A stretch of DNA of 64,000 nucleotides, taken from NCBI RefSeq assembly GCF_006345805.1, contig NC_043015.1, positions 20,522,001 through 20,586,000 of the forward strand. Reading direction: 5' to 3'. A program made the position numbers and the translations under genes. Positions 19,112 to 44,500 of the stretch are shown here, piece by piece. The notes below the pieces were generated by a model that was not told where the DNA came from, made no database searches, and saw nothing but the letters and a program-made list of their open reading frames with translations. How positions within the stretch are numbered: position 1 is the first letter of the stretch; every line of letters begins with the position of its first letter. Origin of the DNA: Octopus sinensis. Lineage: Eukaryota.

Positions 19112-19674
19112 GTTATCGCCAAGTTAACATGGTAGTCCAGAAAAATAGGACGAATGCTGCCGTTGATTAGCTCCAAGAGGCCATCGCCTCTAGACAGCTA
19201 TGTGACACACAAATCTGTGTCCATTACTATCTTCGAACAGAGAAGGTCATCAACTTCCCCTAGCTGATTCAACATCCACAGACTAGTTTCGGGGTATTTG
19301 CCCGTTATGAATTTGTTGTAGCCGAACACAGCAGGCGTCGCTGTTGGGTGTCTGTTCGAAGGTTTATTTGAATATATCCAGTGGAACACATTCTCTGGTT
19401 TTCAAATAGAAAAATTACTATTTATAAATCTCACTAAAGGAGACTTCTAACAGACAGTCAACAGCGACGCCTGCTGGTTTCAGCTACTCAACATTGATAA
19501 GGAGAAAATATTCCGAAACTTTTCTGTGGTTGTTGAACCAGCAAGGGGAAGCTGACGACCTCCCCTGTTCGAAGGTTGTGATGGAAAGCTAGCTAGAGGC
19601 GATGGCTTCTTGGAGCTAATCAACGGCAGCATTCGTCCTATTTTTCTGCACTGTCATGTTAGCTTGGCGGTAAC
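19112..19674. mobile_element. ~560-bp fold-back element with ~250-bp arms, each with a decayed hammerhead motif
   Basis: AGAAAAATAGGACGAATGCTGCCGTTGATTAGCTCCAAGA is mirrored exactly at ~19608-19647; complementarity continues inward to ~19360/19445. Confidence 0.9.
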
Positions 19675-19934
19675 AATGAATATATATATATATGTACATT
19701 ATATACATATATGCTTTTGTATATATTTATTTCACTGTATCCGTCTATCTATCTATGAAGTTTTAGAAAAAATGCTTGGTACAGTCATAATATGTGAAGG
19801 AAGACTTTCATAAATTTAAAAGCACGTAAGGTGCTTAAGAAATGCTAAGAGATATCACGTGATGTTTGTGTCATTCTTTATAAGATTCGTTATCGTCGTC
19901 GTCCCCCCTCTCCCTCCTCTCCCTCCTCCTCATC

Positions 19935-20098
19935 CTCATCATCATCATTTAACGTCCGTTTTCCATACTCGGACGGTTTGACAGAAGCTGGTAAGCCGAA
20001 GGGCAGCACCGGGCTCCAGTCACCTGTTTTGGCACGGTTTCTACGGTGGGATGCCTTTCCAAACGCCAACCATTTCATAGAGTGTACCTGGTGCTGCT
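19935..20098 (-). mobile_element. RTE-related SINE/LINE 3' portion
   Basis: Minus strand TGGTTGGCGTTTGGAAAGGCATCCCACCGTAGAAACC...GGAAAACGGACGTTAAA(TGA)n, an RTE-type tail. Confidence 0.7.
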
Positions 20099-20486
20099 TA
20101 TAAATTTGATAATTTTGAATTCTTTCATACATACATATATATGAATATATAAAAATATATGTATGTGTGTGGTGTGTGTGTGTGTGTGTGTGTGTGTGTG
20201 CGTGCGTGCGCGTGTATGTGTGTGTGTATGTAAGTGGGTGCGTTTTAATGATATAATGTCTTTCCAGCAAGTGTCCTTACATGACCGCAGTCCAATGATT
20301 CAAACACCCAGATGAAATAATAACATATACCCACAGATATATTGTGACTGCGGTAAATGATTCTTGTAGCATACCAGTTGCCCTTGCGGCAAATATTAAA
20401 ATATTGTTCCTGTTACTATCAATATATCATATCGTTACTTCTGCAACTGCCCTTAGTAATAGTTATTATAATTGTATAATGAAACA

Positions 20487-20645
20487 TTCTTCTTCTTCTT
20501 CTTCTTCTTCTTCTTCTTCTTCTTCTTCTTCTTATTATTATTATTATTATTATTATTATTATTATTATTATTATTATTATTATTATTATTATCATTATTA
20601 TTATTATTATTATTATCATTATTATTATTATTAACATTATTATTA
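20487..20645. repeat. Compound microsatellite (TTC)n-(TTA)n
   Basis: Direct inspection. Confidence 0.95.
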
Positions 20646-22049
20646 CCATTCTTCTAGTAATTATTATTATAATGTAATGTCTTAACGGTTTAATTTCTGG
20701 TAACGGAAAGCTGTCCGCAAGCGTCTGACAACTTCAGATCTGTATTGGAAATGGTTGACAGTTCATTGTAGAGAGAACTGTTGATTCCAGCAACAGACTA
20801 CGCATGACTTAATTGAATTGCTTTGATTTCTGCAGAGTTATTTATGTTGCGTTCGCCTTATTAAGTGAATTCAATTGATAATTCTTGGCTTAAATTTTCT
20901 CGTAACTATAGAAATTTCGTTTTCCATTTTCAACTGTATGCATTCCCTAGTGACGAGTTTTATAGTTAAGTGCACACGTGGGTGTGCATGTGTATCGGCG
21001 CACGTGCGACTGTGTCTGTGTATGTCTGTATATCACTGGTTATAGGTCTGCTTGTGTGTGTTCTTATGAATGTGAATGTTATAAGGAGATTGTGAACCAG
21101 TGTATGAACGTTTAGAGGCAATATATGTATCTGTGTGTATATATTGATATTTCAAGTGCATTCTCGCACTGATAAAAGCATGTGTGTATGTATGCATGTA
21201 TGTATGAATGTATATATGTATGTATTTAGCTATGTGTCTGTCTGTCTGTCTGTCTGTCTGTCTGTCTGTCTGTCTATCTATCTATCTATCTATCTATCTA
21301 TCTATCTATCTATCTATCTATTTATCTACCTATGCATGTGTGTGTATGTATCTATCCATCTATCTGTGTCTGTCTGTCTGTCTATCTATCTATAAACATG
21401 TATGTTTGTATGTATGTATGTATGTATGTATGTATGTATGTATGTATGTATGTATATATCAATCTATCAATCTATCTATTTATCTATCTCTCATATCTAT
21501 ATCTTAATCTACCTATCTGTCTCTCCATTTGTCTGTCTCTCTGTCTCGCTGCATAGATGTCTATATTTATGTAGATATGTATAAGCGTGTTTAGGTGTGT
21601 ACGTATGTGTAAGCGTGATTAGGTGTGTGTATATGTGTATTGCATATTTGTATGTTTTTAAATATGTTTTTTTAAACGTAAAATTTCTACATGTATACAA
21701 TGCGTGCACGCACACTGACGCTCAGCCCCCCTCCTATCTATCTAATGTGTTTCTATATATTTCAAGGCATGAGCACAAATCGTTAATCGATAGATGAGTC
21801 AGTATATATATTACTGTTAAATCATGTATGATTATTACTTTCATATTACACACACACATATATATGTGTGTGTGTGTGTGTGTGTGTGTGTGTGTGGTGT
21901 GTGTGGTGTGTGTGTGTGTGTGTGTGTGTGTCTGTGTGTGTGCGTGTGTGTATGTGTGCATATCTATATATAAACATGTTCTCCTTTGAAGTATATTTAA
22001 AGTTCTTTGCAGAAATCACGGCAATCATTCATAAAACGCATTTTTTTTA

Positions 22050-42074: not shown

Positions 42075-42289
42075 CCTTTCGGCTGGAGGCATAAGGCATC
42101 AAATTTTGGGGGAGAGGGGGTCAGTCGATTATATCGACCCAGTGTTTCGCTGGTGTTTATTTCATCGATCCCGAGAGGATGAAAGGCAAAGTCAACCTCA
42201 GCGGAATTTAGATTCAGAACGTAGCGACGGACGAAATACTGCTAAGCATTTCGTTCAGTGCGCTAACGCTTCTGCCAACTCGCCGCCTT
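42075..42289 (-). mobile_element. SINE family B, best copy
   Basis: Minus strand GGCGGCGAGTTGGCAGAAGCGTTAGCGCA...GTTCTGAATCTAAATTCCGCTGAGGTTGACTTTGCCTTTCATCCT; adjacent to (AAT)n. Confidence 0.85.
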
Positions 42290-43468
42290 AGTAATAATAA
42301 TAATAATACTAATAATAATAATAATAATAATAATAATAATATAACTAAAATAATAATAATAATAATAATAATAATAATAATTATAATTATAATAATACAG
42401 AAAGAGATGGCTGGTGTGTATTTTGTCTTGAACCTCCTCAAGTAAGATTGGCCAAAGCTTAACAGCATAAAAATTGACACAACTAGCACCAAAGAAAATT
42501 AAATTCGATAAAACCGTAAACAGAAAGCAACAAGAACAAGAACAACAACAACAGTAGCAGCAAAAAGATAATCGTATATAAAGCTATGGAATCTTTTCGT
42601 GGAGACCTGGCAATTTCAAAAATACTAAAACAAAAGTTAAATGTCACGAAGTGACATTTTCTCGTCGTGGCGTATCCATTATAATGGTATAAATAATAAT
42701 AATAATAATAATGATAATAATAATAATAATAATGACGGTGAGGATAATATTAATGACAACAACAATAGATAAAATGATAATGATCATTATAATGAATGTA
42801 ATACCAAAAAAAAAAAAAAAAAACTGAATAGCATCCTTAGGAATTTCTCATATCTTAGACAATATAAACACACACACAAACATATCTGTATATATATATA
42901 TATATATATATATATATATTATATAATATATATATATATATATGTATATATATATATATATATATATATATATATATATATATATATATATATATATATA
43001 CTATATATATAAATATATATGCATATAAATATATGTATATATAAGCTTATATATGTGTGTGTGTGTATATATGTGTGTGTGTGTGTGGTGTTGTGCATAT
43101 ATATATATATATATATACACACACATATGCGCGCGGACATACACAAATGTGTTGATCTGAATGTATATACAATGATTTTTTTCGAGTTTAGTATGACACG
43201 TGTATGATAACCATGGAAAAAATATGAACATGTGATAGTTGGGTGGGCGTAAGAGGAGGAAATCGCTTCGGAGAGAACCAATCAGATTTTAATGAAGAGA
43301 ACTAACACATTCCCATTTCTGTACACTGTACGTTTAAGGTGAATATATATATATATATTAACTTATACATATATACATATACACACACATATATACATAT
43401 ATATACATATATATGTATACATACACACACACACACACACACACATATATATATATATATATATATAC

Positions 43469-43890
43469 ACCGTAACGTATATTTGCCAAGTGTGGCGTCA
43501 TCCTATACAGGACAGTGCTTCTGATGTTTGTAGCCCCAGAAAGACATCTCCTCCAGCTGGCTAACGACACACATTTTCATTGTCCGTTTATATTTGCGAG
43601 GGAGATCATCGATCCCATCTTTAGCCTTACATGATAGACACGGTGTCGAGTTTCTAGGTGTTTCCCCGTCCTCAGCGTGTGCTAATCAGCAGCTAGTGAT
43701 GGAAGCTCAGGCAACTCGCAAAATACTATATATTTTTCAAGCGACACACTGTCGCTGATCTCGTAGAAGAGAGAAACTGAGCGAGATTTTCTCAGTAGCA
43801 GTAGGGTCCCGTAACATATATTTGCCAACTGAGTGTGGTGTCCTATAGAAGGGAGTGCTACTGATGTTTACAGCCCCAGGAAGACAGGCT
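43469..43890 (-). mobile_element. Element with ~78-bp direct repeats 340 bp apart enclosing a decayed hammerhead motif
   Basis: CCGTAACGTATATTTGCCAA...CTGATGTTTGTAGCCCCAGAAAGACA (43470-43546) is repeated at 43809-43886; minus-strand ACACG-CTGAGGA...GAAAC-TCGACAC-CGTGT at 43680-43638. Confidence 0.65.
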
Positions 43891-44258
43891 CCCTTCCTGC
43901 GGCAGGCGAGGTGGAATCAGGAATCATATATGCGCTGATTTTAGATTTAATCAATCTTCATCAGTGACGCATTTACCCTGTCGGCAAGGGGTAAAGAGCC
44001 AAAGTCATCTTGTCAGCTTTATAGAGAACATTGTAGGAAACATCGACTGATTTTGAAAGTGAGAATTATAAAAATGCTTGCACGTGGCTACTAGTTGTTT
44101 TGGTTAGTATTACAGGTACTTACTAGCACAGTCCGTCACTTTACTGACTATTATATATATATATAATATATTTATATATATATTTATATATTATATTATA
44201 TATATATATTTATATATATATATATATTTATATATATATATATATATATATGTATATA

Positions 44259-44500
44259 CTTTAATTTATTAAAGCTGCAAAACATCCCCAAAATATCTCA
44301 AAAAAATGCTACTCAGAGTTTCACGTTCCTGTTCATCGGACAGTTTGGATTCTCAATCTAAACTATCGGACGAATGTGAGCATGAAACTCTGAGTAGCAA
44401 TTTTTGGTGATATCCATGTCATGTTTTGGCAGCATAAATAATAATGAAGCATATTACTCTACCTCCGATATTCGAGTACTATTTTTCCTCAACTTGTGCT
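44259..44500. mobile_element. Palindromic element with divergent hammerhead motifs, plus tail
   Basis: Minus 44343-44307 CTGT-CCGATGA-ACAGGAACGT-GAAAC-TCTGA-GTA-GCA; plus 44363-44399 CTAT-CGGACGA-ATGTGAGCAT-GAAAC-TCTGA-GTA-GCA. Confidence 0.8.

Follow-up and report, generated by a model that had tools for sequence, protein, structure and literature searches.

The window analysed here, a 64,000-nucleotide stretch of the Octopus sinensis genome (contig NC_043015.1, positions 20,522,001 to 20,586,000), contains four inverted repeats that are recovered when it is compared with itself by BLAST: 19104-19682 (73%; element 1), 34140-34454 (70%; element 2), 44254-44454 (74%; element 3), and 15704-15818 (90%; element 15709), with E values from 2e-104 to 4e-25. 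In each of elements 1 to 3, both arms hold a remnant of a type I minimal hammerhead ribozyme (HHR), the left one on the minus strand and the right one on the plus strand; the CUGANGA box is absent from both arms of element 15709. Thus, the palindromes with divergent HHRs noted in a preliminary description of this DNA are real, as judged by the inverted repeats and by the HHR motifs in both arms, and the three families that they represent show no BLAST similarity to each other in the window self-comparison, also as described. Tails had been reported after the right arm of two elements; they exist, but all four elements have a one-sided tail, and that of element 1 is on the left (Table 1). Element 15709, previously listed as a derivative, does not derive from element 3 but was inserted separately and belongs to a sister subfamily that is younger (3b; element 3 belongs to 3a). 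All four elements are bordered by TA repeats or by sequence without a clear repeat.

Table 1. Features of the four palindromic elements, in window coordinates (+n, distance from HHR C3)
Feature	Positions	Strand	Remarks
Family 3b inverted pLTR arm, +10..+71	15709..15765	-	95% identical to autonomous pLTR
Family 3b pLTR arm, +19..+139, including tail 15814-15884	15766..15884	+	97.5% identical to autonomous pLTR
Family 1 tail (3' extension), left arm, AT microsatellite at end	19055..19103	-	L001 matches reference to r392; tandem copies with same extension
Complete family 1 monomer, a retrozyme-like tandem unit of 360 bp	19104..19445	-	Element 1 left arm
Remnant of a type I minimal HHR with a G5C change, U3-A8 variant	19281..19311	-	Element 1 left arm
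Inverted 5'-truncated family 1 copy, start at reference position 87	19444..19683	+	Element 1 right arm
HHR remnant without the stem III palindrome; U3-A8 box complete	19494..19524	+	Element 1 right arm
Family 2 inverted arm without tail; HHR 34200-34235, deletion at cleavage site	34140..34261	-	
Non-family spacer (95 nt) with TA/TG repeat	34262..34356	.	Matches in compared loci only microsatellite-level
Family 2 arm truncated at HHR box (34356-34391), tail 34455-34484	34357..34484	+	
Tail-less inverted pLTR arm of family 3a; HHR 44310-44339	44259..44345	-	
Family 3a pLTR arm; HHR 44367-44396; tail 44450-44516; junction type -9/-18	44346..44516	+	

HHRs were assigned from core motifs, stems, and comparison with published minimal HHRs; a loose motif scan gave many chance matches and was not relied on alone. 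No HHR was found among the 150 listed of 387 Rfam matches for the window, nor by Rfam on one intact pLTR copy. Four of the six window HHRs, those in both arms of elements 1 and 2, are broken at the core or the cleavage site (the right HHR of element 2 has C3 and G5 changed and has no stem I strand). Both HHRs of element 3 keep all 11 of the 11 tested core positions, and their stem I is weak. An alternative HHR at 19552-19608 was rejected, as family copies read CTGCTGA there and have no GAAA.

[quoted passage not shown] Its members have the order pLTR-ORF-pLTR with a period of 3325 bp, an ATG-initiated ORF of 711 aa, and a predicted type I HHR inside the pLTR; the arms of element 15709 are 95-97.5% identical to this pLTR, and in older relatives the end of the ORF is joined to family 3a (L273/L262, L279). 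The ORF has no Pfam match and no PDB match, and its single-sequence predicted fold reaches a pLDDT of 33.8. Its Atlas neighbours (0.96-0.99) carry HTH_animal, GIY-YIG, and RVT_1 families, and it has a weak BLAST match (E 3e-6) to a Pfam-positive RT/GIY-YIG protein of the same genome; together with motifs seen by eye, these point to a PLE protein. An inverted copy that includes a 3' end occurs in 8 of 20 autonomous loci, and in all 8 the tail is on exactly one end (the non-tail end of one is clipped at +58). The tail end, which appears to lie at +168 in autonomous loci where a TA repeat is included, is truly at about +139, and many autonomous 3' pLTRs end at +71, the same site as the inverted arm. 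Only one of the autonomous copies examined has a 5' pLTR starting at -17 (L304). The connection to PLEs that had been proposed, comprising the pLTR HHR, the inverted pLTR, the tail, and RNA-based mobilisation, is supported, with family 3 tied to an autonomous element. As a separate observation, none of the listed data sets that contain the sequence is recorded as RNA; contigs from four presumed-RNA runs are much deeper over the pLTR than over the ORF, and those of one such run contain three different opposite-strand joints. Because contigs cannot show starts, strand, or level, neither result was used as evidence.

A 46-nt probe from family 3b has 953 exact matches in the genome, and the first 30 in genome order were taken as the sample of young copies, with junction types scored by eye. 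The first sets of loci had been picked for their similarity to the entire element and therefore favour palindromes; further sets, among them the probe-based 3b set, were chosen against that bias. Full palindromes account for 20 of the 30 copies, and 2 more are partial. The 20 fall into 17 junction types, one of them shared by 3 copies; junctions recur in mirror form, and a single type can occur in both the G and the T subfamily (L333/L349 versus L336; L329 versus L335). Wherever the G/T marker could be scored, the two arms carry the same variant (15 of 15 loci; chance, 1.5e-4). One arm of family 3 ends at +71 and the other, with the tail, at +139. Upstream, by eye, the inverted arm is longer in 7 of the 20, the tail arm in 8, and the two are equal in 5, and clear extension beyond -19 is seen in only 3 of the 30 young copies. 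Many junctions lie at short inverted microrepeats.

Older copies were compared arm by arm. In 39 copies there are 21 centre lengths, the length of 27 nt occurring in 10, and the junction of element 3 is found again in L069, L078, and L172. After 3 duplicate loci and 7 family 3b copies were dropped and both arms were required to exceed 25 bits, 37 palindromes gave identities of 0.805 between tail arms, 0.799 between inverted arms, 0.801 across the two, and 0.826 within a locus, with no arm-specific columns (lowest p 0.025, threshold 0.0005). Copies with a common junction type are no closer to each other (0.77-0.82, against an average of 0.80). In family 1, no junction is common to any two of 32 loci, 7 duplicate or self loci having been dropped beforehand; about five "inverted" assignments (L005, L013, L016, L018, and L198) are fragment artefacts, and one junction is present twice inside locus L188. 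These counts speak against replication of the palindrome as a unit, the check that the preliminary description had called for. The new class of fold-back retroelements that it envisaged is likewise unsupported, because junctions differ from locus to locus, which the description itself had named as grounds for abandoning the idea, and also in view of solo and tandem copies and the lack of arm-specific variants.

Both solo and tandem copies of families 1 and 2 were found as well, again with varying junctions. Family 1 has a period of 360 bp; partial tandems are the sole class in 11 of 55 loci, with more of them inside inverted loci, and the 9 core positions of its HHR are intact in 19 of 30 cases. 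Its U3-A8 HHR variant is common to a second autonomous PLE family of the same genome. The head of family 2 has A- and B-box-like motifs, and its D, anticodon, and T arms align weakly to the Rfam tRNA model (13.3 bits, E 6.2); a second family 2 copy gave no tRNA match, and ARAGORN found no tRNAs in 14 family 2 loci. No ORF linked to family 1 or 2 was found in 30 GIY-YIG loci or 30 ORF loci with 1.5-kb flanks. It is likely that family 1, as a 360-bp retrozyme-like unit, and family 2, with a tRNA-like head and an HHR end, are non-autonomous passengers of PLE-type machinery.

Taken together, we favour the view, with a probability of about 0.88, that the palindromes are short insertions of the hammerhead-bearing end of PLEs, whose mirror half was likely built anew at integration and not copied from a palindromic master. 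The opposing model, a class of non-autonomous fold-back elements whose entire hairpin passes through transcription and retrotransposition as one RNA while the antisense arm masks the ribozyme, can draw on the predominance of palindromes among young tail-bearing 3b copies (20/30), on the recurrence of some junction types, and on the folding of whole elements into long hairpins with 65-80% of bases paired. It is difficult to reconcile with 17 junction types in 20 copies, mirror types, one type across subfamilies, the lack of arm-specific variants, junction-sharing copies that are no closer, and the same architecture on kilobase ORF-bearing copies. Neither does it fit the HHR core, which decays at CpG (G5 is intact in 46 of 74 arms, and the core is intact in both arms of 5 of the 37 older palindromes), or the absence of an A>G/T>C skew (p 0.24 and 0.92). 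The same two results leave without support the suggested off-switch to be relieved by ADAR or a helicase. HHRs in both polarities follow from DNA inversion alone, and no viroid-like trait besides them was seen in the elements. We consider the hairpin model very improbable and already largely refuted; a minor sub-lineage copied as a unit may exist.

Arkhipova et al. 2013 (PMC3846280) proposed that the inverted arm arises when a single cDNA, or an antisense template, folds back and primes itself, instead of from two primed cDNAs. This origin seems unlikely here, in spite of the subfamily variants common to both arms (15/15) and the many junctions at inverted microrepeats that would suit it. Either arm can reach further upstream, the tail-less one doing so in about 7 of 20 young palindromes, so that a single fold-back from a tail-primed cDNA cannot make all palindromes; fold-back from a tail-less cDNA cannot add the tail, and +71, where the inverted arm stops, is a fixed site at which many autonomous 3' pLTRs end too. 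The antisense-template form keeps some plausibility. An origin at the DNA level, whether as MITEs bounded by transposase-type TIRs or through hairpin rearrangement of copies already inserted, would account for the MITE-like look and the insertion into TA repeats, but the asymmetric ends (+71 versus +139), variable centres, and solo and tandem copies go against it and the identity to a retroelement pLTR contradicts it, and we give this origin next to no credence. The mirror junctions, the fixed 3' ends at +71 and +139, and the 5' limit near -17 favour two primed cDNAs from one RNA source.

The likely route by two primed cDNAs can be pictured as follows. The PLE protein would nick both strands of an AT-rich site, and two cDNAs would be primed from the same RNA, or from RNAs of the same source locus, at two internal start sites (+71 and +139). 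If the start sites used are those of the transcript's 5' pLTR, each cDNA would either extend until the template runs out close to the RNA 5' end, at about -17 to -18 relative to HHR C3, or terminate before reaching it; the RNA end at -17 is deduced from copy ends. Their 3' ends would then be joined head-to-head, often via 2-4 nt of microhomology, and the inserted copies would decay neutrally. In L1 twin priming, two target-primed cDNAs are likewise joined head-to-head at microhomology, and the second primer anneals internally, which gives two parts without overlap. By contrast, the arms here duplicate each other because both cDNAs start near the same end. A literature search for Penelope twin priming with inverted microhomology found nothing pertinent.

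This architecture is already in print and is not a new element class. In the reports on EN+ PLE insertions (Arkhipova 2013, PMC3846280; Craig 2021, PMC8557442, Fig. 2; Frangieh 2024, PMC11167929), insertions share with the present ones a head-to-head inverted copy at the 5' end, a tail at one end, a pLTR that contains an HHR, partial tandems, targets that are AT-rich or consist of microsatellites, and an ORF-bearing parent, here for family 3. The inverted copy with its tail is described there as 5' truncated (PMC8557442; PMC3846280), and integration is described as nicking and extension of both strands, with two RT start sites setting the tail and HHR cleavage unneeded (PMC11167929). Compared with those accounts, most copies here are pLTR-only stumps with 100-350 bp per arm and 5' ends bounded near -17, the tails are about 58 nt (family 1) and 70 nt (family 3) versus the published 30-40 bp, and no clear target-site duplication is readable in the microsatellite flanks of the four window elements.

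The PLE minimal type I HHRs, as characterised in Cervera and de la Pena 2014 (PMC4209133), resemble ours in having a short stem I and a palindromic stem III, an additional base ahead of stem II, the U3-A8 variant (here in family 1 and the second autonomous family), and pairs 100-700 bp apart on opposite strands. The predicted ribozyme of family 3 differs in that its stem III has 4 bp and a 1-nt loop and its stem II has 2 bp and a GNRA loop; the older subfamily has a U4C variant. Like non-LTR retrozymes (Cervera and de la Pena 2020, PMC7229834; bioRxiv 10.64898/2026.07.22.740005), family 1 is non-coding and has a single predicted type I HHR per unit; its copies include monomers as well as partial tandems, and its 360 bp lies within their 150-450 bp unit range. 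It differs in that its tandems were seen only as dimers or partial tandems and that many copies have a PLE tail and inversion.

A bolder combined reading, to which we assign somewhat less than even odds, is that family 2 (34140) represents a SINE that combines a Pol III head of tRNA origin with the hammerhead and tail of a PLE end, moved by a PLE and not by a LINE, and that the stumps record two-primer PLE integration, with short cDNAs mapping the transcript 5' end. Among the titles and abstract openings searched, no PLE-mobilised tRNA SINE was found; such a tRNA-headed passenger, if real, would widen the known pairs of SINEs and their partners. The near-identical young stumps, about a thousand in number, provide data on the way in which inverted copies and tails arise in PLEs, and precise predictions for the PLE assay already established in vitro follow from them. 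The stumps also scatter inverted repeats through the genome, for which double-stranded RNA is predicted on read-through.

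The head-to-head hammerhead architecture in the window is real and repeated, and it is explained as the product of ordinary insertion of Penelope-like elements (PLEs). Self-BLAST returned four palindromes (see the table), and each arm of the three main ones (elements 1 to 3) carries an outward-pointing hammerhead ribozyme (HHR) remnant, which bears out the palindromes with divergent HHRs of the preliminary description. Their tails, extensions of one arm beyond the palindrome, are indeed one-sided; however, they occur on all four elements instead of two, and that of element 1, on the left arm, was missed in the preliminary description. 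Of the six HHRs in the window, four are damaged; in element 3, all 11 core positions tested are preserved in both arms. Type I minimal hammerheads are present in intact copies of families 1 to 3: family 1 has a U3-A8 core and a palindromic stem III, family 2 a canonical core without loop III, and family 3 a 2-bp stem II with a GNRA loop. They match features of the minimal HHRs in PMC4209133, where such motifs are also paired on opposite strands, 100 to 700 bp apart. Rfam gave no HHR among the window matches listed (150 of 387) and none on an intact copy.

Palindromes and other features of the window
Feature	Position	Strand	Remarks
Element 1 (family 1)	19104-19682		palindrome
Element 2 (family 2)	34140-34454		palindrome
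Element 3 (family 3a)	44254-44454		palindrome
Fourth element (family 3b)	15704-15818		palindrome
Fifth palindrome	60396-60524		74%; after TA run
HHR, type I	44993-45026	+	well formed; stem I 8 bp, II 4 bp, III 4 bp, U4C
HHR-like motif	43637-43675	-	CUGAGGA box exact
LINE RT ORF	~36262-38239	-	broken, several frames; named by eye
Inverted match to the LINE	53935-54363		66%
Tandem duplication, ~860 bp	3903-5845		91% identity

The surrounding genome (2.72 Gb) is AT-rich and rich in microsatellites, and no host exons are evident among the window ORFs. The well-formed type I HHR lies at the 5' edge of another repeat, directly after a TA run, with relatives at loci L127 and L106, the latter palindromic. 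The HHR-like motif has a similar stem III word and weakly matches the family 1 profile. The fifth palindrome has a relative at locus L141, and its inward-pointing GAAAC words could be what is left of a tail-to-tail HHR pair.

The family 3 sequence is the terminal part of a PLE. A tail-only search led to solo copies (lacking an inverted partner) with longer upstream sequence, then to ORF fragments upstream and finally to full elements, in which terminal repeats (pLTRs) flank a 711-aa ORF (pLTR-ORF-pLTR, period 3325 bp). Pfam and PDB searches with this ORF were both blank; its Atlas neighbors are HTH_animal, GIY-YIG, and RVT_1 clusters (0.96 to 0.99), and with E 3e-6 it is also similar to an RT/GIY-YIG protein of this genome that is Pfam-positive. 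The arms of the fourth element are 95% and 97.5% identical to the autonomous pLTR, and element 3 belongs to an older relative; the suggested PLE link thus holds for family 3. An inverted copy including a 3' end exists at 8 of 20 autonomous loci, each with a tail on one end only and a different breakpoint. At L250 a PLE ORF fragment is flanked by two head-to-head family 3 arms, and at L257 one is attached to an inverted arm of family 3 and has a different 3' sequence at its own end; both arrangements are possible template switches.

For a 46-nt family 3b probe placed across the tail junction there are 953 exact matches. The first 30 in genome order were analyzed: 20 are full and 2 partial palindromes, and the remaining 8 are solo copies. 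The inverted arm stops at +71 and the tail arm at +139 (counted from HHR C3), and only three of the 30 copies reach clearly past -19 upstream. A G/T marker is concordant between arms at all 15 scorable loci, and therefore both arms come from a shared template. One junction type, in contrast, is found in the G and T subfamilies alike; therefore, junctions are not inherited with the template. This, together with the 17 junction types (counted by eye) among 20 full palindromes, contradicts the proposal that palindromes replicate as units with junctions shared across loci. In an unselected 664 kb, all four family 3 loci are palindromic (two being the window's), with four different junctions.

A set of 39 copies, most of them older, shows 21 center lengths, the commonest (27 nt) in 10 copies, mirror forms included; the element 3 junction type is common to three other loci. 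Identities among 37 older palindromes are 0.805 between tail arms, 0.799 between inverted arms, 0.801 across, and 0.826 within a locus. These palindromes have no arm-specific columns, and copies with the same junction type are no closer to each other than average. A new class of fold-back elements is not supported. Nor is an off-switch, in which the ribozyme is masked and ADAR editing or a helicase relieves it: the HHR core is intact in both arms of only 5 of the 37, without A>G/T>C skew.

Inverted, 5'-truncated copies with a one-sided tail are described for PLEs in PMC8557442 and PMC3846280. According to PMC11167929, a PLE protein nicks and extends both strands, two RT start sites bound the tail, and HHR cleavage is dispensable. 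We infer that one RNA source would template two cDNAs, begun at +71 and +139 on opposite target strands, whose 3' ends would then be joined; priming on the 5' pLTR would yield short cDNAs, ending at or before a putative RNA 5' end near -17. In about 7 of the 20 young palindromes it is the tail-less arm that extends further upstream, and in about 8 it is the tail arm, a pattern that one fold-back of a sense-templated cDNA could not generate. Self-priming on an antisense template, as proposed in PMC3846280, is a less likely alternative to the joining of two cDNAs. The HHR cut site is a possible starting point for just 1 of the 20 junctions (L340).

The family 1 unit is closed, noncoding and 360 bp long. 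Existing as monomers and partial tandems, it resembles the non-LTR retrozymes of PMC7229834 and of bioRxiv 10.64898/2026.07.22.740005; the latter traces non-LTR retrozymes to PLEs. Of 25 family 1 loci picked by 3' end, 13 are inverted, 11 solo, and 1 tandem, and no junction is shared between any two loci in 32 inverted calls (about five are artifact calls). A second autonomous PLE family of this genome has the same U3-A8 HHR variant, located 3' to its ORF. That family (L217, L218, L227, and L231-L233; RT and GIY-YIG by Pfam) has open frames of 780 to 883 aa, with the HHR about 570 bp past the stop codon. No partner ORF for families 1 and 2 was found in the 1.5-kb flanks of 30 GIY-YIG and 30 ORF loci.

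Family 2 combines a head bearing motifs that resemble A and B boxes with a TAA/CAA repeat, the HHR, and a 30-nt tail. It is head-to-head at 16 of 29 loci (by eye), the junction lying within the head, within the TAA repeat, or within the body. At L033, L040, L042, L052, and L054, tRNA-like heads are bridged by the TAA repeat to the HHR end, and the head is often itself head-to-head. A match of the head to Rfam tRNA (13.3 bits) weakly suggests a tRNA origin; two further tRNA searches, of a second copy and of 14 loci with ARAGORN, were blank. A tRNA-related HHR repeat in schistosomes provides a precedent.

The families are new, and their kind is already known. Their value lies in the mechanistic record of PLE insertion that they hold and in the lead offered by family 2.
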